Part shown: positions 25,197 to 50,432 of the stretch, in pieces | Layout of the letters: every line of letters starts with the position of its first letter | How positions within the stretch are numbered: position 1 is the first letter of the stretch | NCBI GenBank assembly: GCA_963668175.1 | Contig: OY764159.1 | Coordinates: 3,904,001 to 3,968,000, forward strand | Direction: 5' to 3' | Length of the DNA: 64,000 nucleotides | Origin: Syntrophales bacterium | GTDB lineage: Bacteria > Desulfobacterota > Syntrophia > Syntrophales > PHBD01 | Made by a program: the position numbers and the translations under genes | The notes under the pieces: generated by a model | Seen by the model: only the letters and a program-made list of their open reading frames with translations | What the model was told of the DNA's origin: nothing | Databases searched by the model: none

Positions 25197-26270
25197 ATGA
25201 ACAGCTCGCTTCTTACTCTCTTTGCCGTACCGAAGGCCTTCACGGGAGACATGGCGTGGATCCAGGGCAACGCCATAGCAAGCTGGACCAAACTGAATCC
25301 CCGCCCCGATATCATCCTAATGGGGCAAGACCGGGGAACGGCCGAGATCGCCCGGGAGCTTGCCGTCGAACACGTCCCGGATATCGAGACCAGCGAATTC
25401 GGAACGCCGCTGATGCACTCCATTTTCCAGAAGGCGGAGGCGTGCACGAATACACCCTGGCTTGGCTATATCAACGCCGATTGCATGCTGCTCGCCGATT
25501 TCTCCCATGCCATGAAACTGCTGCAGAGCGAACTCGCGCGTCACGCCATTCCCGAATTTCTTCTAAGCAGCCAGCGGGTGGAAATCGATGTTCGGAAGTC
25601 CATCGATTTTTCCGCCTCCAATTGGCAGGCGGATATCGTGACCGAAGTGAACGAACGGGGCGTTCTCGACCACAAGACGGCCATCGAACTTTTTCTGTTC
25701 AGCAGGGGTCTCTTCAAGGACATACCGCCGTTTGCCATCGGCAGGCCCTGCTGGGACAACTGGATGGTCTGGTTTGCATGGCATAACAAAACGGCCGTTA
25801 TCGACGCGACGGAGGCGTTCCGGGTCGTCCACCAGTGCCACGACTACAGCCATGTTGCGGGCGGCTGGCGTAAAACAAGGCAGGGCGAGGAAGCGCAACG
25901 AAACGTCATCCTGGCCCAGGGACGGTTCATGTCTCTGGATATTGCCTGCACGCACGTTTTGAACACAACGGGTTTGTTCCCGGGCAGGACGCCCGACAGG
26001 GGCATGAGGGACACCCTGGTCAAAAGGAGATTGGAAAGGGGTCTGGAGGAATTCAACCGGGGACGCTACAGCGAAGCCCTCGACTATTTCGACGACGCCC
26101 TGTCCAGATCGGGCTCTTTGGCCGTTCAATCGGTCCACCTGGTCAGGGCGTTATGCCTGGACAAACTCGGCCTTCGCGAAGAGGCCGTAGCGGCGCTGAA
26201 GGATGAGCTTGCCTCCTTTCCCGACAACGTACAAGCCCTGCAATTCCTGGAAAAGTTGACGGAAGCCTGA
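25197..26270 (+). CDS. Uncharacterised GT-A-like domain + TPR (paralog of the N-terminal domain of 12589..15894)
   Basis: LFAVPKAF..GTPL..YINAD..GRPCWDNW..IDAT..HQCHDYSH aligns by eye with 12589; C-terminal TPR pair. Confidence 0.7.
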   Translation: MNSSLLTLFAVPKAFTGDMAWIQGNAIASWTKLNPRPDIILMGQDRGTAEIARELAVEHVPDIETSEFGTPLMHSIFQKAEACTNTPWLGYINADCMLLADFSHAMKLLQSELARHAIPEFLLSSQRVEIDVRKSIDFSASNWQADIVTEVNERGVLDHKTAIELFLFSRGLFKDIPPFAIGRPCWDNWMVWFAWHNKTAVIDATEAFRVVHQCHDYSHVAGGWRKTRQGEEAQRNVILAQGRFMSLDIACTHVLNTTGLFPGRTPDRGMRDTLVKRRLERGLEEFNRGRYSEALDYFDDALSRSGSLAVQSVHLVRALCLDKLGLREEAVAALKDELASFPDNVQALQFLEKLTEA

Positions 26271-26376
26271 AAAAGCGGGAGGACCGGGACATAGAACCTT
26301 TCGCCTCATGGGGCAATTCCAACGGAATGTTCCAGGAGAAGCTCCGTCGCAATAACCGCAGCCTCGCTGCCGCCCT

Positions 26377-28260
26377 TCAGTTTCCTTCAGCAACACACCT
26401 CCGAAGGCCGGCTATCATCTCGTCGATCACCTTTTCCCAGTCACCGGGGGCCGGTTGGCGAAACAGTCGCATCGTCGGGTACCACGGGCTGTCGTCCCTT
26501 TTCAGAAGCCATCGCCAATCCGGTGCATGCGGAAGCATCAGCCAGACGGACCTCCCCATTGCCCCCGCCAGGTGGGCCACTGCCGTGTCGACCGAAATGA
26601 CCAGATCGAGGTTCGCAAGCAACGCCGCCGTATCGGCAAAATCGTTCAGATCCTCCGTATAGTCGATTATCCTCCTGCCGTAAGTCCCACCGTTCAGCAC
26701 CTCCGCTGCCTTCCCTTTCTGCAAGCTGTAAAACAAGACTCGATCCGTATCGAGGAGCGGCACCAGCTTCTCCATCGGAATGGATCGGTTGCGGTCATTC
26801 TTGTGTTCCGGATTACCCGACCACACCAGGCCGACTCTGAAGCCGCCGCCGTCTGCAACGAGCCTTTCATGCCACGTTGCTTCCCCGACCTTGTCGGCGG
26901 CAAGATAAGGGATGCGATCGGGAATCGACGACAACTGTGTTTGAAAAACCATCGGCAGTGTCAGGAGCGGGCAGTGGCAATCGAAAACGGGAAGATCGTC
27001 TCCGCGGCGAATGACCCGTGCAGCGCCGTCCACGGTCTCGCAAAGGGTTACCAAACCCCCAGGCACTTCGACGATGACCTTGGCACCCGTCTTCGCCACA
27101 AGCGGAACATATCGAACAAACTGTATGGCATCCCCGTACCCCTGCTCCGCATGGAGCAGGATCGTTTTTCCCGCAATGTCGGAGCCGTCCCAGAGAGGCT
27201 GCGAAAAATGCCTCAGGTAGAGACGGTAATCCGCCTTCTCCCACCGCCATTCATACCGCTTCCATCCTTCACTAAACTCTCCCGCCAGCAAATAAACCAG
27301 CGATAGATTCCACTGTGCCTCGGGAATCGTGGGATTGATCTCCAGGGCCTTCTGATAACAGCCGATGGAGTTAGCCGTATCCCCCTTTTCCTTGAAGGCG
27401 ACACCCATATTGTTATAGGCCTCGAAATAATCGGGATCGATCCCAAGGGCCCTCCTGTAGGTCCCGATGGCCTCATCGTATCGACCCGATTCCCTCAGGA
27501 CGTTTCCGAGGTTATAACAGGCATCCAGGAAAAGCGGATCGATCCGCAGGGCCTCCCGATAGGAAGCTGCGGCCGCCTCGGCCCGCCCCGTCTCTTTGTA
27601 GAGATTCGCTATGTTATAATGGATCTCCGCATCGCCGTCTCTCAGCCTCAAGGCCTCCCGAAAGCTGGCCATGGCTTCCGCCATCTCTCCTTTGTCCCGC
27701 AGGGCGTTGCCCATGTTCTTGTAAAAATCCGCCGAGTCCGGGTTCAATTGGAGGGCTTTTTTAAAGCACTGAACGGCCCCTTCGAAATGGCCTTTGATCC
27801 TCAAGGCGTTTCCCAGGTTATTATAGCCCATGGCATTGTCGGGATCCCCTCCGATCGCCGTTTGGTAGCATTCGACGGCCTGATCGATCTCTCCGCAGGC
27901 CGTTAAGGCGACTCCCAGATTGTTGTGGATATCGGCATTGCCGGGGCAAAGCGCGGCGGCGCTCCGGTAACAGGCAACGGCCTCTTCATACCGCCCCTTT
28001 TCCTGGAAAGCATTGCCCATATTGAGATAGGCATCGGCATGGCCGGGATAGGAGTCAATCGTTCTCTGGAAATACTGGACGGCGAGATCGAATTCCCGGC
28101 GGTTATAAACGATGAGGCCGAGAAGATACAGACAGTCTGGATCGCCGGGCACGTTCTCCAATATCTTCAGACAGGCGGACCGGGCTTCTTCCAGGCGGCC
28201 TTCCCGGTAATCGATCAGGGCTGTCCGGATAGTCTCACGGATGGCATCCGACGTGTTCAC
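26377..28260 (-). CDS. TPR + GT-B (GT9-like, FlmG/FlbA-type architecture) glycosyltransferase
   Basis: About nine TPRs, then GWKRYEWRW, EQGYGDAIQF, DLVISVDTAVAHLAGAMG, DWRW..SPWYPTMRLFRQ. Confidence 0.85.
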   Translation of the reverse strand: MNTSDAIRETIRTALIDYREGRLEEARSACLKILENVPGDPDCLYLLGLIVYNRREFDLAVQYFQRTIDSYPGHADAYLNMGNAFQEKGRYEEAVACYRSAAALCPGNADIHNNLGVALTACGEIDQAVECYQTAIGGDPDNAMGYNNLGNALRIKGHFEGAVQCFKKALQLNPDSADFYKNMGNALRDKGEMAEAMASFREALRLRDGDAEIHYNIANLYKETGRAEAAAASYREALRIDPLFLDACYNLGNVLRESGRYDEAIGTYRRALGIDPDYFEAYNNMGVAFKEKGDTANSIGCYQKALEINPTIPEAQWNLSLVYLLAGEFSEGWKRYEWRWEKADYRLYLRHFSQPLWDGSDIAGKTILLHAEQGYGDAIQFVRYVPLVAKTGAKVIVEVPGGLVTLCETVDGAARVIRRGDDLPVFDCHCPLLTLPMVFQTQLSSIPDRIPYLAADKVGEATWHERLVADGGGFRVGLVWSGNPEHKNDRNRSIPMEKLVPLLDTDRVLFYSLQKGKAAEVLNGGTYGRRIIDYTEDLNDFADTAALLANLDLVISVDTAVAHLAGAMGRSVWLMLPHAPDWRWLLKRDDSPWYPTMRLFRQPAPGDWEKVIDEMIAGLRRCVAEGN

Positions 28261-28287
28261 ACCGTCTTCCCCCCGAGCGATACCTTC

Positions 28288-29376
28288 TCATGACAAAACG
28301 GCCGCGGCGATATCGCGTTCGTTTCCCTTAATCCATTCATACATATCCTCTAAGACCGACGTAGGCGACCGCTTGGGCTGCCAGCCGAATGTCCCGGACA
28401 CGTCCCCATTGTCGGTGATATAAATTCTTACGTCGTAAGGCCGGTCCGTCGGCTCGGAGGCCACCGCGACTTCATTACCGGTCACCTCCCTGCACAAGGC
28501 CGTCAGTTCAAGAAGGGATAACGTATTTTCAACCCCGCCGCCGGCATTGAAAATCCGGCCGTTTGCCTGATCCAGGTTTTCAAGCTGACGCCTGAGAAGA
28601 TCAAAAAGGTCGTCGATATGTAGGATGTCCCGTACCTGTTTCCCTTGTCCTCCGAACCCGATATACGCGAGCGGTTTTTTAAAATAATGGGCCGTCAGCC
28701 AGTAGGAGAGTACACCCTGTTCGGCTTTTCCGAATTGCCAGGGACCGGCCAGGAGGCCGATCCGGTTGATGATGCACCGGATGCCGTACATGGAAGCGTA
28801 TTCCTGAAGAATGAGTTCCGAACACAATTTGGTCGCACCGTACATGGACCTCGGACCTTCCAGAGGGAAACCCGAAGCGATTCCGGCAGGCGACCAGCCC
28901 GGTATCTTTTTCGCCTGTTTCCCACCCCAGATAAAGCGGGTTTCAGTTTCGACGACCTCCAGGCTGTTAATACGTTCGTAGGGATAGACGCGGCTGGTCG
29001 ACAGATAGATAACATCCGCCTGATGCTTCCTCGCCAGTTCGAGACAATGGATGGTTCCCGTCAAATTGCTGTGGATCAGATATTCGGGGCTTTCGTTATG
29101 GCCGGCCAGGACGGACGGTTCGGCGGAACAGTCGATGAGAAGGTCGATGGTCCGGCCAAGGTCCAGGTCTTCCCTGTTGCGGATGTCTCCATGGACGAAT
29201 TCGATATTCATTGATTTCAGACGAGGCAGGTTGAGTTCGGAACCTCTTCTTTTGAGATTGTCCAAGCAGATGACATGCAAGTCCGGGAATTCCTTTTTAA
29301 ACGAACAGGCGAGATTGCTGCCGACAAAACCGGCACCGCCCGTTATCAGCAGGGTTGCATAATTTCTTTTCGTCAT
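28288..29376 (-). CDS. NAD-dependent epimerase (CDP-paratose 2-epimerase/RfbE-like SDR)
   Basis: LITGGAGFVG, DNLKRRGS, YGATK, GKQVRDILHIDDL, FNAGGG. Confidence 0.8.
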   Translation of the reverse strand: MTKRNYATLLITGGAGFVGSNLACSFKKEFPDLHVICLDNLKRRGSELNLPRLKSMNIEFVHGDIRNREDLDLGRTIDLLIDCSAEPSVLAGHNESPEYLIHSNLTGTIHCLELARKHQADVIYLSTSRVYPYERINSLEVVETETRFIWGGKQAKKIPGWSPAGIASGFPLEGPRSMYGATKLCSELILQEYASMYGIRCIINRIGLLAGPWQFGKAEQGVLSYWLTAHYFKKPLAYIGFGGQGKQVRDILHIDDLFDLLRRQLENLDQANGRIFNAGGGVENTLSLLELTALCREVTGNEVAVASEPTDRPYDVRIYITDNGDVSGTFGWQPKRSPTSVLEDMYEWIKGNERDIAAAVLS

Positions 29377-30431
29377 GGCTGCACCACCGATTTCTGGGTT
29401 TCGTAAATCTCCTGCAGGATGGCGTCCAGGCTATAGGTCAGATGCCATTCGGGATAATGGCTTTGGAATTTCTCATTGCTGCTGATCCACCAGATGTGGT
29501 CTCCGGCCCTGGCCTGGTCCGCGTATTCATACCGCATCGCCTTGCCCGAAATCTTCCGGCACAAGTCAATCGCTTCCAGGACCGAGCAGTTGCAGAAACG
29601 TCCGCCGCCGATGTTATAGACCTCGCCGCAGCGCGGTTTCTGCGAGAAGATGAAGAAGGCCCGGACGAGGTCGCGGGCGTCGATATTGTCCCGGACCTGT
29701 TTGCCTTTATAGCCGTAGATGACGTATCGCCCGCCGGTGATGCAGCATCGCATGATATAAGACAAAAAGCCGTGCAGCCTGGTTCCTGAATGGGCCGCCC
29801 CCGTGAGGCAGCCGCCCCTGAAAACGGCGGTCTTAAGATGGAAGTATCTGCCGTATTCCTGAACGAGCAGGTCCGCAGACAGCTTGGAGACGCCGAACAG
29901 GCTGTGCATGCTCTGATCGACGGACATCGTTTCATCGATTCCCCGATGCCACGGATGAGGTTCTTCAAGTTCGTACCGCGTCTCTTTTTCGATAAACGGC
30001 AAACGGTTGGGCTGGTCGCCGTAAACTTTATTGGTGGAGGTATAGATGAAGACCGCATCCCCGGCATATTTACGGATGCTTTCCAACAGAATCAAGGTTC
30101 CTTGGGCATTGATGGAAAAGTCGGTCTGAGGATCGGATGCCGCCCAATCGTGGGACGGTTGTGCGGCCGCGTGGATGATCAGATCGAAACGGTTTTCCTG
30201 AAAGAGCCGGGCGACCGACGCCTCGTTCCTGATATCCATGTCCAGATGGCGATAACGGGGATACTCCTTTTTCAGGCGTTCGTTGTTCCAGGCCGTATCC
30301 CCTTCCGGCCCGAAGAAAAGTTTACGCATGTTGTTGTCGATGCCGACGACCTCGCGGCCCTGCTCGCTGAAGAACCTGACGGCTTCGGAACCGACCAGGC
30401 CCGCCGAACCAGTAACCAACACTTGCGACAT
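29373..30431 (-). CDS. NAD-dependent epimerase (RfbE-like SDR, FxxxK variant)
   Basis: VTGSAGLVG, HAAAQPSH, TSTNKVYGD, SLFGVSK, GKQVRD, YNIGGGR. Confidence 0.8.
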   Translation of the reverse strand: MSQVLVTGSAGLVGSEAVRFFSEQGREVVGIDNNMRKLFFGPEGDTAWNNERLKKEYPRYRHLDMDIRNEASVARLFQENRFDLIIHAAAQPSHDWAASDPQTDFSINAQGTLILLESIRKYAGDAVFIYTSTNKVYGDQPNRLPFIEKETRYELEEPHPWHRGIDETMSVDQSMHSLFGVSKLSADLLVQEYGRYFHLKTAVFRGGCLTGAAHSGTRLHGFLSYIMRCCITGGRYVIYGYKGKQVRDNIDARDLVRAFFIFSQKPRCGEVYNIGGGRFCNCSVLEAIDLCRKISGKAMRYEYADQARAGDHIWWISSNEKFQSHYPEWHLTYSLDAILQEIYETQKSVVQP

Positions 30432-30454
30432 GAATTGTGCCTCCGGAATATCCC

Positions 30455-33400
30455 CTATTTTGCCGCCTGCGATTTAAACAGCCAAAATTCGCGATTCGCC
30501 CGCATGACGGCCGCTTCCAGGTCGTCCTTGCCGAGATCCGCGGACCGGATGACCGTATGCTGCCCGCCGTCGTACATTTCCCATTCCTCGGTCAGCAGAT
30601 GTCCCCGTTCTTTCAGCATATCAAAATATTTCGTTCCGGGAAACGGTGTTGTGATGGAAAACTGAATCGTATCGGGATTCATCTCCTTGGCAAAGGCGAT
30701 GGTCCTTTCGATGGTTTCGCGATTCTCTCCGGGCAAACCGAAGGTGAAGGTCAAATGCGTCAGCACGTTCAATTCCCGGCACCATTGAACGGCGGCCCGC
30801 ACGCGGGCAAGATCGAGACCTTTTTCCGCCGCATCGACGAGGGATTGATCGCCCGATTCCACCCCGAGCTTGATACCCACCAATCCCGCCTCTTTCATGG
30901 CTTTCAGCATATCGTAATCCATGGTGTCGGCCCGGGCCATAATCCCCCAGGGAAGGTTGAGGCCCTGTCTGCGCATTTCCCGGCAGAGTGTGAGAACCCT
31001 CTCTTTACCGATGTTGAACGTGTCGTCGTCAAAATAGAATGAATTGAATCCGAACTCGTCGACGACCTGCCTGATCTCCCGGACGACCGCTTCGGGATCG
31101 CGAACCCGGTATTTTCTGTTGCCGTAAAGAACCTGCGGCCATGCGCAATATATGCAGCCAAACGGGCATCCGCGGCTTGCATGAAGCTGCAGACTCGGAT
31201 AGGTCATGCCGGCAAAGAGGTCGTTGTATTTGTAAATCGGCAGCATCAGCCTCTCCGGAACCGGCAGCGTATCAAGGTCGATCGGGTCGGTCCTGCCGTT
31301 ATCGACGATACGGCCATTCGAATCCCTGCAAAACAACCCCTTAACACCACTGTAATCTTCGTCTTTCAGCAGACATTCGATCAATTCCAGGGAAGGTATT
31401 TCATACTCCCCGCAGATGACAAAATCGACCAGGGGATTCTCTCCCAGGATATGAACCCCCTGAACGGTTGCGTGGGCTCCCGCCCAGATCACCTTCACCC
31501 GGGGCAGGCGCTCGCGAATTTTAAGAAGCCATAACGTATCGACGACGTAGGAGGCCGTGGCCGTTTCCATGAAGACGATATCCGGTCCATAGCCCGCCAC
31601 CCGTTCGATGAATTCCGAGTCGGTCAGTTCCTCCGCAATCGCATCGACGACGACATGGCCGATCCCTTTTTCACTGAGAAGGGAAGAGAGATAACCCAGG
31701 AAAAAAGGATAGGGCATATAACCGGTGATATCCATATTATCCACGTACGGCGCCGTGTATGGCCACCGGGACCCGGCCCGTACGCCCCGCCTCCGCCCGA
31801 CCGTCCAGGGCGGATTCAGGAGCATGATCCTCTGCTCCGCCCTGTAGGGCGATTGCTCCTCCTCGCGGCGGATACGCCGCAGGCTTACGGCAATCATATC
31901 GTAGACGAGGGACTTCATATTGAAGATGCGATTGAGACGGTCCATAACGGCAATAATGAAATGCAGATCGGCATCGGCCGATATACCCATGGCGGCCAAC
32001 CCACGGTTGATATCGGATTCGTCGCACAGGACTTCATTTAAGCGCTCATTGAATTCGGCAAGCGTCCTTTCCAGATCGTTCGGAAAGAGCACCGATATGA
32101 GATCGGCGAGGTCCGCCGCCAATCCTTTCCGGATGGCATCCTTGGCGCGGGCCTTGATATTGCGGGCATTCATCAGGAAAAAGAAGAGGGTGACATAGGC
32201 GGCCTTCAGGGTCTCTCTATGGGAGGCCCCGGGCGAATCGATGCAGAGCCGGTTAAGGTCTTTTAAGACAGTCCTTATGCAGCCGAGGAAACTGGGATAG
32301 AGCAACGCGTATTGCTTGCGATTGATCAGGTCCGCCAAGTCGGCGATATTCTCCTCGACGCCGTTGATGCTTTTCTCCAGAAGGGCCGCTAAATTCCCGA
32401 AGGATCCTTTCGCCTCGTAAACCGCCTTTCGCCAGTTATAACATGTATCGACCACGGTCCGGAGGGTATCGGTGCGGCTGTGATAGCAGACGGCCTCGGG
32501 CACGTAGCGCGTTTTATAACCTTTCGACAGAAGCAGTTTGGAGATATAGACGTCCTCCGTGTTGGTCTTGAGGATATCCCAGTACCCGCCCGCTTCTTTC
32601 AGGGCTTTGACGGCAAAGACCGTATTGCTGCCGAAGAGGATAACATCGTCCAGACACTTGTCGCCGTGATCCTGGGGCATCCGGACCTGCCGCCAGCGGT
32701 CGACAACCGTCACCGTATTCTTTTCGATGAGTCTGCCGCCGACCCCGGCAATGCCCTCCCGGTCAAAAGCGAGCATCAGCCTCTCCAGCCAGAACGGATC
32801 GGGAACGGCATCGGTGTCCACCGTTGCGAGAAACGCCCCCTTGGCTGTATGGAGGGCCGTGTTCCTTGCCGCGGCGAGCCCCTTGTTTCCGTCATGGGAT
32901 ACAATAACCACGGGATACTTCTCGGCGATGGAGATTGAGCGGTCTGTGGAACCGTCATCGATGATCAGGATCTCCTCAATGGGATAGCTTTGTGCGAGGA
33001 TACCGTCAAGGGCTGCGGCAATGTACTTTTCGACATTATAACAGGGCAGATAGAAAGTGACGGAACGGCGGGGGCAGGTTCTTTCCAGTTCCGCGATGCG
33101 TTGTGTAATGGATTCTTCGCCCGGACGCCGGCTGGCCATTTGCTTAAGCAGAGCGACCTCCGAATAACGGAGCCCCAGCCGGCCGTAAAGCTTCTGCAAG
33201 GCCCGGTATGCCGGATCGAAATCAGGATCTGCGGCAATGGCTTGTCGGTAGTTGCGTATGGCCCATTCATGGAGACCTAAATCATGCAGAATGTCCGCAT
33301 GGGCGGTCAGACCTTCGGCGACCGCCCCTCTTCCGATCCGCTGTTCCGCCGCGCGGTACGCCGCCAGGAAGCCGTCGATCTCTTTTTGATGGCAGGAAGT

Positions 33401-33502
33401 GAAGCAGTCGTCATGGATCATCATACGGATGCCGTCTTGTGAATATTGCGGCCGCTTTTCTGCATGCTGCTTGTTCTTTCCAGCCGCGGAGATACTTATC
33501 AA
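30455..33502 (-). CDS. TPR - GT2 - B12-binding radical SAM (HpnJ-like) fusion
   Basis: TPR; YLPCYN..IDDGSTD..GLAAARN..VDTD GT2; LLNPP..RAGSRWP..YPFFLGY; ASRGCPFGCIYCAWPQ, FDDDTF, GVESG. Start may be ATG 33424 rather than TTG 33502. Confidence 0.85.
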   Translation of the reverse strand: MISISAAGKNKQHAEKRPQYSQDGIRMMIHDDCFTSCHQKEIDGFLAAYRAAEQRIGRGAVAEGLTAHADILHDLGLHEWAIRNYRQAIAADPDFDPAYRALQKLYGRLGLRYSEVALLKQMASRRPGEESITQRIAELERTCPRRSVTFYLPCYNVEKYIAAALDGILAQSYPIEEILIIDDGSTDRSISIAEKYPVVIVSHDGNKGLAAARNTALHTAKGAFLATVDTDAVPDPFWLERLMLAFDREGIAGVGGRLIEKNTVTVVDRWRQVRMPQDHGDKCLDDVILFGSNTVFAVKALKEAGGYWDILKTNTEDVYISKLLLSKGYKTRYVPEAVCYHSRTDTLRTVVDTCYNWRKAVYEAKGSFGNLAALLEKSINGVEENIADLADLINRKQYALLYPSFLGCIRTVLKDLNRLCIDSPGASHRETLKAAYVTLFFFLMNARNIKARAKDAIRKGLAADLADLISVLFPNDLERTLAEFNERLNEVLCDESDINRGLAAMGISADADLHFIIAVMDRLNRIFNMKSLVYDMIAVSLRRIRREEEQSPYRAEQRIMLLNPPWTVGRRRGVRAGSRWPYTAPYVDNMDITGYMPYPFFLGYLSSLLSEKGIGHVVVDAIAEELTDSEFIERVAGYGPDIVFMETATASYVVDTLWLLKIRERLPRVKVIWAGAHATVQGVHILGENPLVDFVICGEYEIPSLELIECLLKDEDYSGVKGLFCRDSNGRIVDNGRTDPIDLDTLPVPERLMLPIYKYNDLFAGMTYPSLQLHASRGCPFGCIYCAWPQVLYGNRKYRVRDPEAVVREIRQVVDEFGFNSFYFDDDTFNIGKERVLTLCREMRRQGLNLPWGIMARADTMDYDMLKAMKEAGLVGIKLGVESGDQSLVDAAEKGLDLARVRAAVQWCRELNVLTHLTFTFGLPGENRETIERTIAFAKEMNPDTIQFSITTPFPGTKYFDMLKERGHLLTEEWEMYDGGQHTVIRSADLGKDDLEAAVMRANREFWLFKSQAAK

Positions 33503-34650
33503 GCCAGGATGGCGTAAAAACGCTTTCCCGTCTCCTGCCAGGTCATTCTTCGCAGGTCTTCACCCGCACGTTCGCCGATCTTCCGCAGGGCATCCCTGTG
33601 ATGGTAGGCCCAATCCAGTTTCGCGACCGCTTCCTCCAGGTCCGGTTCATCCCAGGTGGCGACATTCTGTTCGTTATTGGCAATCGTGATGCTTCTCAGA
33701 TTCGCCAGTTTCAGACAGTTGTCGTCCGTCATAACATCCTTATGACCGCTTGAAAAGGAGGCGATGACGGGCTTCCCGCAGGCCATGTACTCCATCATGA
33801 CCAGGTTGGTTCCCCCTTCGCACCGGTTCGGAAACAGACCGATGTCCGTATTTTTATAGAGGCGCGGCATCATGATATTCGGGTACAGCGGCAGCGTGAT
33901 GACCCGGCCGATGTCGATGCCGTTGTCGCCGAGTATTTGGTTGATCAATGCTATGTAATCGTCCGCCGCCGGCGAAAACCGGATATGGGGGGAAGCAGCC
34001 ATCGTATGCATGCTCGCCGGCCACTGATTGAACCAGCTGTTGACCAGAACGGTGTCCTTGTAGCGGTCCTGCAGAACTTTGTAAGCGCGGATGACGATGT
34101 CCTGCCCTTTCCTCAATTCGAATTTGCCGCCGGAAAAGACGACAAAGTGATCCCGTAGATACTCTTTCTCATTATAAAGAGGGTTGAAGATCGTCGGGTC
34201 GATGCCCTGGATGACCGTGGTCACATGCCGAAGACCGTAGCTTCTTAAAACTTCCTCGCACCAACCGGAACCGGTAACCACCGTATCGAAGAACTTGACG
34301 CTGTTTTCGATGTACGAAGCGGACAGGATGTTGTTCTCGAAGAACGTGTAACCGACGTTGTTCGTGCCTCGCAGGCGGGGATAGTTGGAAGACCCGGTGA
34401 TGTTGTTGATGGCCTGGAGTACGGGATAATCGACTTCCAGGGGTTGACCGGAAGTGATCCACTGCTGCTCCCGGTCGGATACGAGCGTCCGCTGAAGAAG
34501 CCGAAAGTCCAGTTCGTCCCCTATGGCGTTCATATCGAAGCCCTCGGTGACGAGGCGGACTTCGGTTATTCTCGACAATTCCTTGACGATATACTTCCCG
34601 CAAACGCCCCAACCGTGAAAGCTTCCCGTGGGAAGAGCAGCAAGAATCAT
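33499..34650 (-). CDS. GT4-like (GT-B) glycosyltransferase
   Basis: FSGGKFELRKGQD, FPNRCEGGTNLVMMEYMACGKPVIAS. Confidence 0.85.
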   Translation of the reverse strand: MILAALPTGSFHGWGVCGKYIVKELSRITEVRLVTEGFDMNAIGDELDFRLLQRTLVSDREQQWITSGQPLEVDYPVLQAINNITGSSNYPRLRGTNNVGYTFFENNILSASYIENSVKFFDTVVTGSGWCEEVLRSYGLRHVTTVIQGIDPTIFNPLYNEKEYLRDHFVVFSGGKFELRKGQDIVIRAYKVLQDRYKDTVLVNSWFNQWPASMHTMAASPHIRFSPAADDYIALINQILGDNGIDIGRVITLPLYPNIMMPRLYKNTDIGLFPNRCEGGTNLVMMEYMACGKPVIASFSSGHKDVMTDDNCLKLANLRSITIANNEQNVATWDEPDLEEAVAKLDWAYHHRDALRKIGERAGEDLRRMTWQETGKRFYAILA

Positions 34651-34686
34651 AAGGCACCCGGTTCAGTTATGGATGACGGTTTAGTG

Positions 34687-35394
34687 CTAAGCATCCTTCT
34701 TCTCCGCAACGATAATATACTGGAACGTGAAAAACATGCCGGCTTCCTCCCTCGAAACGTTGCGAATGAGCACCTTGCCGTAATCCAGGTCTTTAGGCCA
34801 TTCCTCATCGTCGATCCGGCCCTGTATCACGCTTGTGCAAGCGAGAATCCGGAATCCTCCGCACTCGAACATCCTCTGTATCTCAGGAAGCGTGAAAAAC
34901 CTGATATGGGTCGCATCGAGAAGCCCGAACGGGGTGTATGTCCACTTGCCTCCGATCAGGTTCAGGACAACCGAGAGATTCTGGACATTCGGGACGCTGG
35001 CAATGATCCTGCCCGCCGTCTTCAGGCGATCGCGCAGGAAGTTAAGGACCTTCCAAGGGTCGTAGAGGTGCTCCAAAACGTCGTTGCAGATAATGAGATC
35101 GAATGTTCCTCCGGGGAGATCGGCGTCATCCGGCATCATTTTTTCGATATCGCCGCAAATCACGCGGTCCAGGCATGCCCGGGCCTTTTCTGCGGCGCCG
35201 TCGTCGATTTCCACACCTACATACATGACCCCCGGATATTTCTGTTTGATAGCGCGGCCCGTGGCGCCGGCGGCACAGCCGATCTCCAAAACCCTTTCCG
35301 GCGGCCGTTCGATCAGGGCGATGACTTCCATCCGGGGTTGGTCGTCATATTTCTGTGCGTGATCCAGTTTCAAGGGTGTGTAGTAATCGTTCAT
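34687..35394 (-). CDS. Class I SAM-dependent methyltransferase
   Basis: VLEIGCAAG, FDLIICNDVLEHLYDPW, GLLDATHIRFFT; ATG 35394 has an AGGA RBS upstream. Confidence 0.9.
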   Translation of the reverse strand: MNDYYTPLKLDHAQKYDDQPRMEVIALIERPPERVLEIGCAAGATGRAIKQKYPGVMYVGVEIDDGAAEKARACLDRVICGDIEKMMPDDADLPGGTFDLIICNDVLEHLYDPWKVLNFLRDRLKTAGRIIASVPNVQNLSVVLNLIGGKWTYTPFGLLDATHIRFFTLPEIQRMFECGGFRILACTSVIQGRIDDEEWPKDLDYGKVLIRNVSREEAGMFFTFQYIIVAEKKDA

Positions 35395-35456
35395 CGCTGT
35401 CGTTTCCTGTTTTCCTATATCCGGGTTGTCCAAACTGCGGCAGGACGTCCCTAATA

Positions 35457-36986
35457 TCACGTTTGATAGCGCAAGGCCTCCCGGAAATATTGCATGTGTT
35501 TGTCAAAACGTCCCTGCTGCAGATAGACCGTGGCCAGATTGTGATAAGCCGCTGTATGATCGAAACGGAGGTCAATGGTCCGCAGGTAGCATCGGACGGC
35601 CTTTCCCAGATCGCCCGTTTCCTGGAACGCGTTGCCTAGATTGAAGTAGGCATCGGCGTAACCCGGATCGAGATCAATGGCCGTCTGATAAGCGGCGATC
35701 GCCTGCCCGATTTCCCCTCGCTCCCGCAAGGCAATGCCGAGGTTGTTATACACGCGGGCATCGGGATATCCCATCTCCAGCGCCTTTCTGTAACAGAGGA
35801 TCGCCTGATCGATCTGTCCGGTTCTCGACAAGAGTATCCCGAACTCGAGATAGGATGCCGCATCGGCCGTCCCCTGTTCCAGGGCGTCGCGGTCGCGGGC
35901 TATCGTCTCAAGCTCCTGGTCGGCTTTTCCGCGTCTTATGTCGTACTCCCGAATGCATTTTCTGCTGCGCTCGTTTGGAGCGGCAAGGATCTTCGAAATC
36001 ATATCAGCAACGCGATGGCCATACGTATGCTTGGTCAGGACTTCCCGCCGGCCGGCTTGAGCTATCCGTTCCCGCTCTTCCTCATGCTTCAGATAGTATT
36101 CCGCCAGGGCCATCATTTCGTCATCCGAACGGTAGTAGACCAGATGCTCCCTATCGGCAAACAAGTCCTCCAGGCCGCTTCCCGATATGCTGTCGGTAAG
36201 GAGCAGACTCCCCGTCGCCATCGCTTCGAAGATTCTCATATTGATTTCACTCACCGTCGAGACATTGAAGACAATCTTCGATTCCGAATAGACCTCGGCC
36301 ATACGCTCTCCGAAACAGCGCTCGTAATGCACATCGAAGCGTGTCCGCAATTTTCCGATCATCTCTTCGCGCTTCGGATTCAAGGTGCCGACAAAGCCGA
36401 TGTCGTAACGCTTGGTATCCGATTTCCTGTTGTGGATCTCCGGGTCGCAAGCGTGGGGCAGCCAGTATACGTTTTCCGCACCCGCCCGCCTGTACCTTTC
36501 CACTTCGGCCTTTTGGGAGACAAAGACATGGTCGAAGTGTTTTGCCATCTCGATTTTGAGTTCCGGGAGATACTGGGGGTCCAGAAGAAAGCAGGCCGTA
36601 GGACAGGGCAGGGTCTTCAGTCCCGCCATCAAGAACCAGTAAAAATTATCGGTCCAGAAAAACAGGTCCGGCATCCAGGGGAGTCTGCGCAAAACGTCGT
36701 CGAGTTCCGGTTTGTCGTAGGGTATATCGGCATGGACCTTGTTGTCGGGAAAGACATCCGCGTCATCGCCGTCTCCGACAGGCAAAAAATTCAAAGACGC
36801 ATAGACGGACCTGGGAAGATCGGGACCATAGGTAATCAGATCATGATCCCGGCGCAGGACCTTCTCGTAAAAGGACCCGTGCGCCGATGTCGACGTCTCG
36901 GGAATGAAGGTCCGGGCGAATAATACCTTCAAACGCGCCGTACCGTTTTTTCCGTTAAGCAGAGCGGCTTTCTCATTTGGGTTCAT
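35457..36986 (-). CDS. CgeB-like GT-B (Glyco_trans_1_2) with C-terminal TPRs
   Basis: WLPHACDP, DIGFVG, NMRIFEAMATGSLLLTD, IAQAGRREVLTKHTY; four TPRs. Confidence 0.85.
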   Translation of the reverse strand: MNPNEKAALLNGKNGTARLKVLFARTFIPETSTSAHGSFYEKVLRRDHDLITYGPDLPRSVYASLNFLPVGDGDDADVFPDNKVHADIPYDKPELDDVLRRLPWMPDLFFWTDNFYWFLMAGLKTLPCPTACFLLDPQYLPELKIEMAKHFDHVFVSQKAEVERYRRAGAENVYWLPHACDPEIHNRKSDTKRYDIGFVGTLNPKREEMIGKLRTRFDVHYERCFGERMAEVYSESKIVFNVSTVSEINMRIFEAMATGSLLLTDSISGSGLEDLFADREHLVYYRSDDEMMALAEYYLKHEEERERIAQAGRREVLTKHTYGHRVADMISKILAAPNERSRKCIREYDIRRGKADQELETIARDRDALEQGTADAASYLEFGILLSRTGQIDQAILCYRKALEMGYPDARVYNNLGIALRERGEIGQAIAAYQTAIDLDPGYADAYFNLGNAFQETGDLGKAVRCYLRTIDLRFDHTAAYHNLATVYLQQGRFDKHMQYFREALRYQT

Positions 36987-38013
36987 AAAAGGTTCTTCCC
37001 AATCGGTCCAGAAGATACATCGCCCTTTTTTCGGTCAAATGAAACCTGATCAAATGATCGAGGCCCTGTTCGATGATCCGGTCGGCCTCTATCCGTCCTT
37101 CCAGGACCGTATCGATGGCTTCGAGCATTTCGTCGAGCGTTGCAAAACGGATGATATGCTTTCCCTGCTCAAAATCATTGGGGATAAACAGCGGCATTTT
37201 CTGGGCGATATGGACGGCCTGGCACGCGGCATTTTCCCAAAAACGGAACGTATCATAGCCATCGCCGCGCAGACTCAAAACGACCCGGCATTTCTGGATG
37301 TTCCTGTAATAATCCTGGCGGTTCAGCCTGCCGTCGGGTGATGGATTGTTCGCAGAAGGGACGGCAGATGTCTGGAGCAGACAGTCGGGATATCGCCGGG
37401 ACAGGATATCCAGAATGCCGCCCCGGCTTTCGCCGTGAAAGAATTCCCGGTCGCTCCCCAAAAATCCCACAGAGTAGACTTTTTCCTGATCCCGGAACGA
37501 TTGGATCCATTCCCACAGTTCCCTGGGCAGGGCCATCGGCAGCGGGATGGAATATTCCGAGCCGTCCGTCTCTCTCCTGCAAACCGCGTACGGTCCGGGC
37601 GGGATGTAAAAGGGGTAATCCTCTCCATCCACGAGGACCAGGCCCGGCGGTAACGGATAAGATTCATCCTGAAACAGGGGGATGGTCCGTATTCCTCCGA
37701 AACCTATCTGTGCATAGACGTCGTTCACTTCCCTCAGGACCTTCAAGGTCAAGCGGGAATCGCAAATGACATACTGGAAATAACGATTTCTCACTTTTTG
37801 CAGGATATCGTCCCTATCGATGGTCCCTTCGTCGGGAGGGAACATATTGGGACAAAGCTGGTCATCCGGGGCAATGCCGAAAAGTTCACCCCGATAAAGG
37901 CTGTCTTTCCGGGGATAATCGACGACGCTCGGCCCCAGCAGCTTCCGCAAACCATGCATGAGAAGATCCGGGACGTAATTCGGATAAGGATGGGTCAAAA
38001 ACAGGATATTCAA
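36973..38013 (-). CDS. Putative GT-B glycosyltransferase
   Basis: LSLRGDGYDTFRFWENAAC..IPNDF..G..HL..FH C-terminal GT-B motif; TTG start overlaps the upstream stop. Confidence 0.65.
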   Translation of the reverse strand: MNILFLTHPYPNYVPDLLMHGLRKLLGPSVVDYPRKDSLYRGELFGIAPDDQLCPNMFPPDEGTIDRDDILQKVRNRYFQYVICDSRLTLKVLREVNDVYAQIGFGGIRTIPLFQDESYPLPPGLVLVDGEDYPFYIPPGPYAVCRRETDGSEYSIPLPMALPRELWEWIQSFRDQEKVYSVGFLGSDREFFHGESRGGILDILSRRYPDCLLQTSAVPSANNPSPDGRLNRQDYYRNIQKCRVVLSLRGDGYDTFRFWENAACQAVHIAQKMPLFIPNDFEQGKHIIRFATLDEMLEAIDTVLEGRIEADRIIEQGLDHLIRFHLTEKRAMYLLDRLGRTFYEPK

Positions 38014-39458
38014 TGTATGTCTCGCATATCGATTGTCGGTTTTCTGCAGATGAAGGCCCAGTATTCTTCCGCGCCGGCCGGTGAATCAAAATTGAGATTG
38101 ATCGCTTCAAGCAGCATGAATCCCGCCCGGCCGATAAGGGAGGCCCACATTTCTTTGCTCATGATACTGTAATGGTTGATGTTCGATTCATGACGGCCCG
38201 TCGTGCCGGGAGCCGGCATTTCCAGATAGAGATACCCCCCGGAATCCAGTACCCGGAAGAATTCCGACAGGGTGAAGAAGGGAAACAGGCTGTGTTCGAT
38301 ACAGTGCCTGACCCAGACGAAGTCGAACGACCCATCGGGAAACATGAGGAATGACTGGTCCATTTTGAGGACGTGGTGGTCGCGGGCGCGGCACACCTTG
38401 ATATCCTCATCGCTGATGGTGATACCCGTCGCCCGATGTCCTTTTTCGCGAAACAGATCGAGGGCCACACCCGGTCCGCATCCCACATCCAGTATTCTCG
38501 CCGGAGCCGTCAGGGAATAGCGGCCGAAGAATTCGTTCACCATCTGAACCGTGATCTGTGTATGTTCGACCGTGACGGGTTCCGCATAGGATTGTTCCTG
38601 AACTCTGGCGATAAAATCGAGCAGCCTTTCCACGCCTATCGCCGGGAATACATCGGGATCCGTGCGTTTCCCGGGCGACGGGTCCGCCGGCTGAACAGGT
38701 TTGGGCCTTACCGAGGCATCTGCCCCGTCAATAACCCTCCGCCACTTCTGAACGAACTTATCCCGGTTGGAAAGGAGGATGTCGTTCCGATACAACGTCC
38801 GCCCAAAATAATGAATGGGCGTGTCGCCCTCGGATTGGGATATGCCCCAGTGGTGTTCGAAATCGGTCACCGGCACCGCATAACAGGCGAGTCCCGCCCT
38901 TTTCAACTGCAATCCCATATCCCACTCTTCGAAGAAACACGGGCTGTATCGGACATCGAACGTCAATCCGTTCTCCAGGAACCTCTCCAGATGGATGGCG
39001 AAAAAGAAACCGGAAACACCGTCGCAGGATATCGGCTCCGCGAAGTTCCCCTTCTGAAAGTAGCGGATGTCGCAGAGATGCCGATAATCGATCCACGACC
39101 CCTGCGGGCCCACAATCACCGCCCGGTCCAGCGAGAAGAGGTACTTTTCCAGTTCGGGAATGGCGGCGGGTCCGATTTTGAGGTCGGAATTCATGATGTA
39201 GACCGCCTTGCCTTCCGCCATATCGATGCCCATATTCCACGACCTGCTCACCCCGGCGTTCAGATTGTTGAAACAATACTTGTCGATCCGGGGATGGTCT
39301 TTCAAGGCTTCATAAACCTCCCGGCTGTTGAAAATGCAGATGACCTCCCCCGACACGGCTTCCAGGTCTGTAAGAAGGGTCCGGATGTTATACGGGCTGT
39401 GGGGCGAGAAATCGATGATGGGAATGACGACGCTTCTTGGTATTTGTTCAGACTGCAA
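38010..39458 (-). CDS. GT2-like - methyltransferase fusion
   Basis: NAGVSRSWNMG..MNSD..VSGFFFA..FEEWD (GT2-like); ILDVGCGPG..FDFVWVRHCIEHS (MTase); GAGGTG RBS before the TTG start. Confidence 0.8.
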   Translation of the reverse strand: MQSEQIPRSVVIPIIDFSPHSPYNIRTLLTDLEAVSGEVICIFNSREVYEALKDHPRIDKYCFNNLNAGVSRSWNMGIDMAEGKAVYIMNSDLKIGPAAIPELEKYLFSLDRAVIVGPQGSWIDYRHLCDIRYFQKGNFAEPISCDGVSGFFFAIHLERFLENGLTFDVRYSPCFFEEWDMGLQLKRAGLACYAVPVTDFEHHWGISQSEGDTPIHYFGRTLYRNDILLSNRDKFVQKWRRVIDGADASVRPKPVQPADPSPGKRTDPDVFPAIGVERLLDFIARVQEQSYAEPVTVEHTQITVQMVNEFFGRYSLTAPARILDVGCGPGVALDLFREKGHRATGITISDEDIKVCRARDHHVLKMDQSFLMFPDGSFDFVWVRHCIEHSLFPFFTLSEFFRVLDSGGYLYLEMPAPGTTGRHESNINHYSIMSKEMWASLIGRAGFMLLEAINLNFDSPAGAEEYWAFICRKPTIDMRDIH

Positions 39459-39564
39459 AAAACACCTCGCGGAAGAAGATTATTTTAGCCCCTCTTTGCC
39501 CTGATCCCTATAACGGCGGAAGCCTGAGACCGGCCGGTTCGGATCTGTATGCAAAAGCTATCAA

Positions 39565-39580
39565 AGCAAGTTGCATGCCG
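39565..39580 (-). promoter_or_regulatory. Putative sigma54 (-24/-12) promoter for the 39458->26377 glycosylation block
   Basis: Minus strand CGGCATGCAACTTGCT fits GG-N10-GC, is intergenic, and lies about 105 nt upstream of the start codon. Confidence 0.7.
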
Positions 39581-39690
39581 CAGATGGAATTATAACCGGC
39601 ATATAACACGTTTTCGCTTTTTTCACATCATGATAGACGTTTCCAAAAGACCGGGCGCCAAGCCTCCTGCCGACTCAGCTTTGGCTGTTC

Positions 39691-43549: not shown

Positions 43550-44366
43550 CCTAGCTCGGATAGGCAGCCAGCTCCGCCGCCACCTCCCCCATTACCGTAT
43601 CCCACGCTCCAGGCTCTCCCTGACGAAACAACCGCATCGTCGGATACCACGGACTGTCTCCCCGTCCCAGCATCCAGCGCCAATCCGGAGCATACGGCAG
43701 AAGCGTCCAGACAGCCTTCCCCATCGCTCCCGCCAAATGAACCACCGCCGTGTCCACAGATATCACCAAATCCAGGTTCCCGACCAGCCCCGCCGTATCG
43801 CTGAAATCATTCAACTCGCCCGTGTAATCCAATAACGCCATCCCCTCAGGTGCCTCCTTCGACTCCCCGGACGCCTCACCCTTCTGCAAACTGTAAAAAC
43901 GCACTCCCGACACTTTCCCCAACGGACCATACTGCAAAAGCTTCAGCGTCCGGTACACATCCTTCTTGTGCGTCGGTCGACCTGCCCAGGACAATCCTAC
44001 CTTCAGCCCGGGTCCCTCTCCGGTCAACCGCTCACGCCAATAGCGCAAAGACTCTTCCGTCCCCCTGATATACGGCACCTCCCCCGGTATCGTCGCAAGC
44101 TCCGTCCCGAACATCCCTGGCAAACTCATTATCGGGCATCGATAATCGTACGGCGGAAGAACCTCGCCTCGCCCATATACCGCCGATATCCCCTCAACCC
44201 CCGACAGCAGACGGACCAGCTCCTTCTGGCACTCCACCAACACCTCCGCCCCGAGATACGACAACTGCCGCGCATAGCGGATGAACTGGATCGTATCCCC
44301 GAAGCCCTGCTCCGTATAAACCAGTATCCGCTTCCCTGCTAAATCCTCACCTCGCCACTCCTGACC
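42308..44366. repeat. Direct repeat unit 1 (2059 bp; TPR module + gene junction + GT module)
   Basis: Near-identical to 44682..46740 (offset 2374), with about a dozen substitutions seen by eye. Confidence 0.95.
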
Positions 44367-48878: not shown

Positions 48879-49013
48879 GAATGGTCAAATTCCCGTCTGT
48901 AGTCGCTCTTTTCCCCACTTGTATTGATTTATCGATGTCTTCCCTTGCGGACGAACCTTTACGTCTTTTTTTGCGGTCGCCGCAGTCACGATCGGTTTCC
49001 GGTTATTTTGCCC

Positions 49014-49511: not shown

Positions 49512-49530
49512 CGTCGTCTGCCTCTTATTG

Positions 49531-49598: not shown

Positions 49599-50432
49599 CT
49601 AGAACAGTTTCAGAATCGACTGGGCGGCCTGAGATGCCAGACTCAGAGAGGTGATGCCAAGGGATTGACGGGTCTGCAGCATCAGCATGTTCGCCGATTC
49701 CTCGTTCATATCGGCCAGCGTGAGGTTATCGGAACCAGTCTGTTCGACATTGATGACGTTCGTCGTGAAAGTCTGCCGTGTCGTAACGACGTTAAGGTTT
49801 GACGCAAGGCTCGAAGCCTGGGTTCGTAAGTTCGTCGTTGCCGTCGTGAGGAACGTAAGGGCTGTTTCCATAACGGCATTGGTCGTCGTGGCCCAGTTTG
49901 AGATCTGGGCTGCGAAGCTCAAGCTCAGGTTGGCCAGGGTTCTCGCTTCAAAACCGGCGATATCGAGTTTGGCAGATCCGTCTTCGTTGAACTTAACGGT
50001 CAGCGTCGTCGTGGAGGCAAGGAGGTTCGTGCCCTTATAACTCGAGTCTTTAGCCAGGGATGTGATCTGACTCATGATCGTATCGAACTGCGTTGCGTAA
50101 GACGCTCTGGATGCCGTATCAGCCGTGGCAAGGGCCGAGTTGGCAATACCTTGCGCCTGCTGGATCAAAGTCAGGAGGCGATCAATACCTTCACTGGCCG
50201 CCTTGACTGTCTGGACAGCTTCCGACATACCGTCCTTTCTCAGGGAAAGGTCGCTGGCACGCTGCAAATGGGATTTGGATGCAAAATAGTTGACGGGGTC
50301 GTCGACGGCGGTGTTGACTTTCTTACCCGAGGCCAGTCTTGTTTGGGTTCGGTTCAAGAGGTCCAGGGTATCCTGTAGAGAAACCAGGTTGCTACGCATT
50401 CCGGTGGTTAACGAAATATCATTAACTGACAT
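49599..50432 (-). CDS. fliC: Flagellin (277 aa, alphaproteobacterial-like termini)
   Basis: N-terminus NLVSLQ.T..LL.RTQ.RLASGKKVN.A.DDP..YF; C-terminus ADMNEESANML.LQTRQ.LG..SLSLA.QA.QSILKLF; AAGGAG RBS. Confidence 0.95.
   Translation of the reverse strand: MSVNDISLTTGMRSNLVSLQDTLDLLNRTQTRLASGKKVNTAVDDPVNYFASKSHLQRASDLSLRKDGMSEAVQTVKAASEGIDRLLTLIQQAQGIANSALATADTASRASYATQFDTIMSQITSLAKDSSYKGTNLLASTTTLTVKFNEDGSAKLDIAGFEARTLANLSLSFAAQISNWATTTNAVMETALTFLTTATTNLRTQASSLASNLNVVTTRQTFTTNVINVEQTGSDNLTLADMNEESANMLMLQTRQSLGITSLSLASQAAQSILKLF

Follow-up and report, generated by a model that had tools for sequence, protein, structure and literature searches.

Architecture of the fusion protein

We analyzed a 64,000-nucleotide stretch of the genome of a Syntrophales bacterium (assembly GCA_963668175.1, contig OY764159.1, positions 3,904,001 to 3,968,000 of the forward strand; hereafter, the window), in which one gene joins a family 2 glycosyltransferase (GT2) domain to a predicted cobalamin (B12)-type radical S-adenosylmethionine (SAM) domain. 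Its open reading frame (ORF) lies at 30455..33502 on the minus strand, as do all parts of the protein described here, and runs uninterrupted for 1015 codons from a TTG to the stop codon at 30455-30457. The first in-frame ATG, at 33427 (M26), is the probable true start, giving a protein of about 990 amino acids, because the structure model shows disorder over residues 1-29 and the alignments of relatives begin no earlier than residue 24-27. An earlier reading of the window (hereafter, the original prediction) had proposed that this protein transfers a sugar and then remodels it by radical chemistry on flagellin, with HpnI and HpnJ of hopanoid biosynthesis as the precedent.

The N-terminal helical repeat (residues 31-142; 33077..33412) is tetratricopeptide repeat (TPR)-like: the Pfam family TPR_11 matched residues 70-110 with an E-value of 5.1e-5 and 23.3 bits, under its cut-off of 26.8, and the model places seven antiparallel helices at residues 31-36, 39-57, 61-75, 78-91, 96-109, 112-125, and 130-142. 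"TPR-like" is therefore a fair description of what the model suggests, and "TPR" is not established. The GT2 domain, of GT-A fold (residues 145-345; 32468..33070), was recognized by Pfam, NCBIfam, and structure alignment. Glycos_transf_2 (PF00535) matched residues 151-297 with an E-value of 1.4e-30 and 106.9 bits (gathering threshold, 23.3); columns D183, D187, D231, E316, and D317 were invariant in 42 fused relatives and D229 nearly so; and VIA-align superposed residues 145-361 on the GT-A transferases 6p61, WrtF, TarS/TarP, and K4CP with Z-scores of 20-23. A connector of about 200 residues follows (residues 347-553; 31844..32464), which is all-helical with ten helices in the model and gave no Pfam match, no NCBIfam family, and a best ESM Atlas score of 0.85, below the useful level.

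The C-terminal half consists of a cobalamin-type Rossmann domain (residues 556-740; 31283..31837) and a radical SAM core (residues 741-1015; 30458..31282). The former was assigned by invariant columns, motif comparison, and the B12-binding family PF02310 (residues 602-704; 37.5 bits, above the cut-off of 32.1), and has a long beta1-alpha1 loop with the motifs NPPW..R.GVRAGSRWP and YxPFPFF. The latter was matched by Radical_SAM (PF04055, residues 776-938; E-value, 3.5e-22) and carries C779-x3-C783-x2-C786-x-W788-P-Q, Y823-F-D-D-D-T-F, and GVESG; the three cysteines were invariant in 42/42 fused and 20/20 domain sequences. With CxxxCxxC in a radical SAM core and a B12-binding Rossmann domain N-terminal to it, the sequence has the features of a class B radical SAM enzyme. 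The motifs noted in the original prediction (RAGSRWP, YPFFLGY, and SRGCPFGCIYCAWPQ...YRVR) were all present in the translation, and its domain starts, about 33064 for GT2 and about 31830 for the B12 radical SAM domain, agree with ours at about 33070 and 31837. Its GT2, B12, and radical SAM assignments within one ORF thus stand, whereas its TPR assignment is sub-threshold.

The full-length AlphaFold2 model, built on the 42 fused relatives, is compact and well packed (mean predicted local distance difference test score, 90.5; predicted template modeling score, 0.90), with the seven helices at 31-142, the GT-A domain at 148-345, the helical connector at 347-549, and a two-part radical SAM module at 559-1014. 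Among the 120 best listed relatives, PF00535 and PF04055 were both present in 67, the window's own protein included, and the fusion was hence kept in 66 other protein clusters. The listed full-length relatives came from many assemblies with identities of 35-87%, some with an extra GT1/GT4 or methyltransferase domain. In addition, Logan contigs from two runs of one sample covered all 3048 bases with no differences and no gaps; this is weak independent support, as the sample may be the genome's own source. A sequencing frameshift, which the original prediction had allowed for, or an assembly artefact was rejected on these grounds, namely the recurrence of the fusion in relatives, the single compact body of the model, and the identical contigs from two runs.

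Relationship to HpnJ

HpnJ was the top-scoring named family for the radical SAM domain. The HpnJ model TIGR03471 gave 266.4 bits for the full protein, 269.5 bits for the domain, and 269.4 bits in the genome search, against a curated cut-off of 577.6; the BchE model TIGR02026 came second (197.9-201 bits; cut-off, 481.35). HpnJ was also the best named model in all 20 family members scanned. The 12 true HpnJ sequences, which were the matches over the cut-off in 12 of 151 genomes of one alphaproteobacterial class, scored 790.9-839.8 bits, all other complete matches in these genomes having at most 220 bits. One fragment of 170 residues at a contig end scored 276 bits, and no complete protein fell in between. 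The motifs given for HpnJ in the original prediction were recovered in the 12 true sequences as AGSRY and GRGCKSRCTFCLWPQ..G..YR.R.

The window's genome (one contig, 100% complete, 4.57 Mb) had 21 B12-type radical SAM matches to TIGR03471 (E ≤ 1e-10), none over the cut-off; two of the 21 sit just upstream of or inside the left part of the window. Squalene-hopene cyclase (TIGR01507) had no match at E ≤ 1e-5 in this complete genome, which extends to the whole genome the earlier remark that hopanoid genes are missing from the window. True HpnJ was found in none of five other genomes carrying the module. We therefore give next to no credence to a genuine HpnJ acting on hopanoids, even though HpnJ is the top-scoring named model: the score misses the cut-off by more than 300 bits, squalene-hopene cyclase is absent, and the protein falls in a clade separate from HpnJ (see below). 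The same negligible standing goes to the artefact explanation, given the conservation of the fusion. Likeness to HpnJ, as originally proposed and checked here with the TIGRFAM model and trees, is thus upheld, and identity as HpnJ is not.

The GT2 domain alone gave 25 NCBIfam hits, led by MftF at 110 bits. HpnI was not among these 25, HpnB reached just 17.5 bits, and the domain was 22-24% identical to the GT2 genes adjoining true hpnJ; it is therefore not HpnI-like. The parallel in gene order is sound: within the 1.5-kb flanks of the 12 true hpnJ loci, a GT2 gene lay directly beside hpnJ in four, mirroring the order of GT2 and radical SAM domains in the fusion.

A family sister to HpnJ

When the radical SAM domain was searched alone, more than 1800 of 8000 candidate proteins were matched at E ≤ 0.001. 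The 120 listed domain relatives had 44-77% identity and at least 430 bits each, and most of them stand alone, with a length of about 485 residues. Not one of these 120 carried the name HpnJ, and several were labelled BchE or YgiQ; the BchE label is a mis-annotation. The family occurs in metagenome-assembled genomes (MAGs) annotated as Omnitrophota, Desulfobacter, Verrucomicrobiae, Planctomycetes, Armatimonadota, Acidobacteria, and Proteobacteria, and, among archaea, as Woesearchaeota, Pacearchaeota, and Methanosarcinales. Three motifs were common to the family and HpnJ, namely AGSR[WY] in the long loop after the first strand, C-x3-C-x2-C-x-WPQ, and [FY]FDDDTF; in the motif comparison, AGSR[WY], C-x-WPQ, and [FY]FDDDTF were absent from BchE and seven paralogues.

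We placed the domain in a tree of 56 rows comprising the target, 14 of 41 fused relatives, and 19 of 22 stand-alone loci picked for taxonomic spread, together with 12 true HpnJ, three true BchE, and seven of 20 paralogues from the same genome. In a careful IQ-TREE run, the family formed one clade of 34 rows including the target (ultrafast bootstrap [UFBoot], 98; Shimodaira–Hasegawa-like approximate likelihood ratio test [SH-aLRT], 96). The 12 HpnJ rows formed a clade of their own (100/100) with the target outside it, BchE was a separate clade, and the family and HpnJ were joined against BchE and the paralogues with a UFBoot of 99 and an SH-aLRT of 97 (97 in a quick run). An enlarged tree of 62 rows added the window's KedN5-like paralogue, on a very long branch, and five true MgmA methylases; in the phylum searched for MgmA, eight of 41 genomes had it. 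The five MgmA fell among the paralogues, away from the family; MgmA was not found in five archaeal MAGs carrying the family. As to whether the domain groups with methylases, a possibility raised at the outset, the comparison covered MgmA and unnamed paralogues, and the family stood apart from these. The radical SAM domain thus belongs to a large family with no name of its own, which these trees place as the sister group of HpnJ.

Partner genes of the family

Two genes for extended short-chain dehydrogenases/reductases (SDRs) follow the fusion gene on the same strand. SDR-A (29373..30431, minus strand; PF01370, E-value 2.1e-39) starts 21 nt after the fusion stop codon behind a GGAGG, and SDR-B (28288..29376, minus strand; PF01370, E-value 1.6e-36) overlaps SDR-A by 4 nt. 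The best Protein Data Bank matches of both were CDP-tyvelose 2-epimerases: 9rl0 and 1orr at 131 and 128 bits for SDR-A, and at 171 and 150 bits for SDR-B. Aligned to 9rl0, SDR-B keeps the Thr/Tyr/Lys triad (T, YxxxK) and has TSR where TyvE has TNK. In TaTyvE, TNK determines specificity and N125 is essential (PMC13098431).

We examined 79 loci of the family, which were chosen by radical SAM motifs and ranked by the fused query, so that the neighbor frequencies below are biased and do not represent family-wide rates. A homolog of the fusion's GT2 domain occurred in 26 of the 79, within 3 kb in 24 and on either side of the radical SAM gene. In three loci (L087, L069, and L037), the GT2 match started 2-25 nt after the radical SAM match; in L077, GT2 lay directly upstream of the radical SAM gene at about 300 nt; and in L084, the order was reversed. 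SDR-A orthologs (55-65% identity) stood beside a family radical SAM gene in nine loci and SDR-B orthologs (49-55% identity) in seven, the SDR-bearing loci coming from a deltaproteobacterial MAG, a Desulfobacter MAG, Nitrospirae, Gamma- and Alphaproteobacteria, and Acidobacteria MAGs. This pairing persisted whatever the GT2 arrangement, whether fused (L009-L011), separate (L045 and L048; L048 was excluded from the Pfam neighbor annotation), split by SDR-B (L074), or arranged as in L077 and L084. Thus, the radical SAM part recurs across phyla with a GT2, fused or adjacent in both orders, and with two SDRs resembling CDP-tyvelose 2-epimerases, an association that is new.

De novo clustering of the 1038 ORFs in these loci gave ABC-2 permeases in 13 loci, ABC ATPases in six, SPASM or other radical SAM genes in 11, five, five, and four, GT4/GT1 genes in nine, six, and five, and GT2 genes in eight and five. 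Three loci are of interest in their own right. In an alphaproteobacterial MAG (L084:8916-13501), cysS and an NMT1-like gene flank a minimal module of SDR-A, the radical SAM gene, GT2, and an unknown ORF of 382 amino acids. No further glycan genes are visible at this locus, and the module is a candidate for the most reduced form in which the system can work by itself. L077 is a compact cluster of six genes. In a Desulfobacter MAG (L045:13549-15153), a radical SAM gene with a C-terminal TPR array follows the module, and after it come a GT2 and another radical SAM gene; radical SAM/TPR fusions in glycan loci may be a recurring theme.

Structural neighbors and cobalamin

The solved chain closest in sequence was AprD4 (6fd2; 107.5 bits, core only), followed by MgmA (9ccb), TokK, CysS, and TsrM. 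AprD4 also ranked first in Foldseek (E-value, 1.6e-20; TM-score, 0.79-0.80) and in VIA-align (Z, 34.5; root mean square deviation, 2.8; 424/453 residues) over model residues 555-1015, five Z units above the next entry; CysS (29.1), MgmA (28.4), OxsB (27.3), and TsrM (26.2) came after it. The fold likeness to AprD4 is high; a shared fold shows no function.

AprD4 is not known to use cobalamin, and its partner AprD3 is an SDR of this kind. Because AprD4 dehydrates a 1,2-diol on the sugar ring of paromamine, a scheme that couples such a dehydration to reduction by the SDRs is a real rival here: radical dehydration would give a keto-deoxy sugar, which one SDR would reduce and the other epimerize, yielding a deoxyhexose without an E1/E3 system. 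The SDR pair, akin to enzymes of the CDP-3,6-dideoxyhexose branch and conserved as partners, would suit this scheme, and SDR-B, with TSR in place of TNK, need not be a 2-epimerase. Conversely, the AprD4 model NF033070 gave 125.4-127.8 bits against a cut-off of 500, on the core region and below HpnJ and BchE, and the SDR pair is absent from most family loci. Furthermore, the family keeps its cobalamin-binding motifs, whereas AprD4 is labelled an "unrelated" enzyme in the legend of a network of B12-dependent radical SAM enzymes (PMC12931638). Taken together, we regard deoxygenation of the AprD4/AprD3 type as improbable.

Read against the motif definitions in PMC9204698, S651 (downstream Ser), G675 (beta4 Gly), and G698-E699 (Gly-Glu) were invariant in the family; their placement on these structural elements follows the model and is provisional. 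W788, one residue after the Cys triad, is kept in the family as well. In TokK, the corresponding Trp stacks between the cluster and cobalamin, and C-x3-C-x2-C-x-W788 fits the signature given there for TokK, ThnK, and CysS (PMC9204698). Cobalamin binding by the domain is likely, judging from the conserved Ser, Gly, and Gly-Glu motifs and the Trp. The fold by itself says little about cobalamin use, since the nearest fold neighbor is the "unrelated" AprD4, which is not known to use cobalamin.

These motifs also fit a cobalamin-dependent C-methyltransferase that would act on an unactivated carbon of the GT2-installed sugar in the manner of GenK, MoeK5, or TokK and produce a C-methyl branched sugar. 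Most characterized class B enzymes are methylases (PMC9204698 and the BchE preprint). Closeness to HpnJ is compatible with methylation, because HpnJ co-localizes with the C-methylases Fom3 and MoeK5 in the sequence network at a stringent threshold (PMC9204698). In contrast, the methylase models scored 51-140 bits on the domain (Sden_1168, 140; PhpK, 125; HpnR, 92; MgmA, 88; KedN5, 51), well under HpnJ and BchE, the true MgmA methylases grouped elsewhere, and the Trp is present in HpnJ too and does not discriminate. We consider C-methylation rather unlikely.

The glycosylation island and flagellin

Upstream of the fusion gene and on the same strand, the genes from 33499 to 39458 are tightly spaced or overlapping. 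By Pfam, they encode a GT4 (33499-34650, overlapping the fusion ORF), a class I methyltransferase (34687-35460), a GT1-like transferase with TPR (35457-36986), a GT1-like transferase (36973-38013), and a GT2 with a methyltransferase domain (38010-39458), all on the minus strand. A scan for promoters and terminators over 26000-41500 found no excess over shuffled sequences (4 vs. 9.1 and 18 vs. 15.8).

We scanned 31 ORFs of the glycosylation island between 391 and 47805; they encode GT2, GT4, and GT1-like transferases (many with TPR arrays), SDRs, DegT aminotransferases, and a UDP-sugar dehydrogenase. At least seven class I methyltransferase domains are also present, which, together with the KedN5-like C-methylase, we take as neutral toward C-methylation by the fusion protein. 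Besides the fusion, the island has three radical SAM proteins (391-2457, 3488-4978, and 7172-8440, plus strand): one is the KedN5-like relative of B12 C-methyltransferases (274 bits; cut-off, 700), another is of the B12 type with Sden_1168, BchE, and HpnJ about equal (157-170 bits), and the third is of a non-B12 type with weak maturase and viperin matches. Tandem paralogs of 788 and 790 amino acids (41183-43549 and 43551-45923, minus strand) are 79% identical, with N-terminal TPR arrays of about 410 residues that are almost identical and C-terminal portions of about 370 residues that are much more diverged, a pattern suggesting that the TPR half was recently duplicated or underwent gene conversion; the GC skew of this stretch is strongly negative, at about −0.30.

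At the edge of the island, 16 kb from the fusion gene, lies a flagellin gene (49599..50432, minus strand; PF00669, E-value 2.8e-12), whose product of 277 amino acids, with 25.6% Ser+Thr, is the candidate acceptor. The 1.8 kb between the last TPR gene and flagellin (47806-49598) holds two overlapping ORFs on opposite strands with no Pfam match; here, GC content falls to about 0.50 and the sign of the AT skew flips. Beyond flagellin are FlgL, FlgK, FlgN, FlgI/H/A/G/F, FliK, FliL, and a FliA-type sigma factor. The 31 scanned island ORFs had no convincing membrane helix (four windows were just over the transmembrane threshold at 1.63-1.78, two of them at N-terminal NAD-binding strands) and none belonged to flippase, polymerase, ABC exporter, or polyprenyl-phosphate transferase families. 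In locus L009, from a deltaproteobacterial MAG, about 8 kb separate a flagellin (53% identity) from a fusion gene (52% identity) that is accompanied by both SDRs, a GT4, and TPR proteins. Because no ortholog was found in 30 relatives (eight of the same family and 22 of the same order), which have just paralogs about 30% identical to the radical SAM part, the fusion gene is accessory, as is usual for glycosylation-island genes.

By analogy, this pattern resembles cytoplasmic O-glycosylation of flagellin, and we slightly favor flagellin as the acceptor in this genome. A polysaccharide, a glycolipid, or another glycoprotein, as in most family members, is a tentative but reasonable alternative. 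Archaea are not known to have bacterial flagellin, and family members occur in Woesearchaeota, Pacearchaeota, and Methanosarcinales; the family loci with ABC-2 permeases, ABC ATPases, many GT4/GT2 genes, and further radical SAM genes would suit such acceptors, as would the bare SDR-A/radical SAM/GT2 module of L084 between housekeeping genes. Opposing this are the lack of membrane, export, and lipid-carrier functions among the scanned ORFs, the abutment of the island on flagellin, FlgL, FlgK, and FlgN, the flagellin linkage kept in the nearest genome-resolved relative, and the absence of the gene from the 30 relatives, which fits a variable flagellar glycosylation island. The proposed aim at flagellin is thus plausible here, where the island has only soluble products, adjoins flagellin, and keeps its synteny in one relative, but does not carry over to the family as a whole, which is found mostly in polysaccharide loci, archaea included.

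Proposed function

We consider it evenly balanced whether the gene encodes a soluble bifunctional glycan-tailoring enzyme that acts as follows, with its product on a flagellin O-glycan. The co-transcribed TyvE-like SDR-A and SDR-B would probably adjust the nucleotide-sugar donor, a common NDP-hexose, and the GT2 domain would transfer the hexose to the growing glycan on flagellin. The radical SAM domain, tethered via the rigid helical connector, would then cleave SAM, take a ring hydrogen from the same sugar, and remodel it. Docking, either on the protein or on a partner transferase, may be the role of the short TPR-like repeat at the N-terminus. The most likely destination of the product in this genome would be the flagellin O-glycan. 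We infer this order of steps, together with the acceptor, the role of cobalamin, and the chemistry, from architecture and context.

As for the chemistry, we lean slightly toward non-methylating ring chemistry of the HpnJ or AprD4 type over C-methylation, and place it a little short of an even chance, with about a quarter left for some other chemistry. Its most specific form, by analogy to HpnJ and the calditol synthase Cds, would be ring contraction outside lipids, in which the GT2-attached hexose is converted in place to an ether-linked carbocyclic (cyclopentitol-type) unit; we judge this particular outcome unlikely. If it is true, the carbocyclic unit would be resistant to acid and glycosidases. 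Pseudo-sugars would then be carried by flagellin here and, in many uncultured phyla of bacteria and archaea, by polysaccharides or glycolipids, and mass-based glycomics would miss them because the change is mass-neutral.

Several observations weigh against the proposed function. The function assigned to family members draws on sequence, context, and analogy, and the HpnJ precedent is itself described from a Burkholderia knockout with no enzymology (PMC9204698, PMC13459092, and PMC9092360). The kinship with HpnJ is distant: the mean identity of the family is 28.9% to HpnJ against 26.4% to BchE and 26.0% to the paralogs, one paralog of the same genome reached 197 bits in BLAST, above any HpnJ (at most 186), and the SH-aLRT of the sister grouping fell to 86 after MgmA and the very long paralog were added, in trees that were built without Fom3, MoeK5, GenK, AprD4, Cds, and PtmC. 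The partnerships are partial as well, even in loci whose choice favored the query, with 53 of the 79 lacking a homolog of the fusion's GT2 at E < 1e-6 and the SDR pair confined to a subset (by clustering, SDR-A in 10/79 and SDR-B in 6/79). Flagellin adjacency was seen in the window and in genome G003 alone; the flagellin genes of G001 and G005 are far from the module, those of G004 are on other contigs, and G002 had no flagellin match. Finally, the TPR call of the fusion protein falls under the Pfam threshold.

The findings point to an undescribed chemical edit of a surface sugar. Few class B radical SAM enzymes that do not methylate are known, and they are poorly understood; HpnJ has never been reconstituted. 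The family described here is large, spans many phyla and both prokaryotic domains, and is tied to a glycosyltransferase by fusions in either orientation, which indicates the kind of substrate to offer it, namely a freshly glycosylated acceptor. Compared with the membrane-associated HpnJ, work could start more easily from the soluble fusion, whose complete genome looks like that of a cultivable organism, or from the compact module of four genes (those for the fusion, both SDRs, and flagellin, a possible acceptor). Should the product prove to be a carbocycle or another rearranged sugar, bacterial protein glycans would gain a new building block, and an unannotated feature that recurs in the surface-glycan loci of uncultured microbes would be accounted for.

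Comparison with known systems

In the literature outside subscription journals, we found no description of a GT2 fused to a B12 radical SAM domain, nor of a radical SAM enzyme taking part in the glycosylation of flagellin. The comparison here is with partial counterparts. HpnJ is genetically required for converting GT2-attached glucosamine to the cyclitol ether (PMC9204698, PMC13459092, and PMC9092360). Like the radical SAM part of the fusion, it has a GT2 partner ahead of it, working after HpnI (and the deacetylase HpnK), and its presumed substrate is a sugar that the aglycone already carries. Unlike HpnJ, the fusion has the 200-residue connector and the TPR-like head in one polypeptide and SDR partners, and its context is a glycan rather than a lipid, with no deacetylase in view.

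The few non-methylating class B enzymes named in PMC9204698 and the BchE preprint are OxsB, BchE, HpnJ, PbsB, and the ladderane enzyme. Among these, BchE, the anaerobic Mg-protoporphyrin monomethyl ester cyclase, gave the second-best model for the fusion, but lacks the AGSR, WPQ, and DDDTF motifs and forms a separate clade. AprD4, which with the reductase AprD3 carries out C3' deoxygenation in apramycin biosynthesis, is, as proposed for the fusion, a radical SAM enzyme for the sugar ring of a glycoside with a nicotinamide-dependent partner; the identity is 24%, and the fusion keeps the cobalamin-binding motifs and is not in an aminoglycoside cluster. A contraction of hexose to cyclopentitol after a glycosyltransferase has been proposed for Cds (Sulfolobus calditol synthase) and for PtmC/PctE of pactamycin (PMC13459092 and PMC9092360). 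Their substrates are a lipid or a polyketide, and we liken them to the fusion by their descriptions, not by sequence.

On the flagellin side, the closest counterpart is FlmG of Caulobacter, in which a TPR domain recruits flagellin to a cytoplasmic O-glycosylation transferase (PMC7591256). FlmG differs in its GT-B domain, its long TPR array, and the lack of a radical SAM part, whereas the TPR-like region of the fusion is short and sub-threshold. In common with the FlmG system, the island that houses the fusion is full of TPR-transferase fusions beside flagellin.

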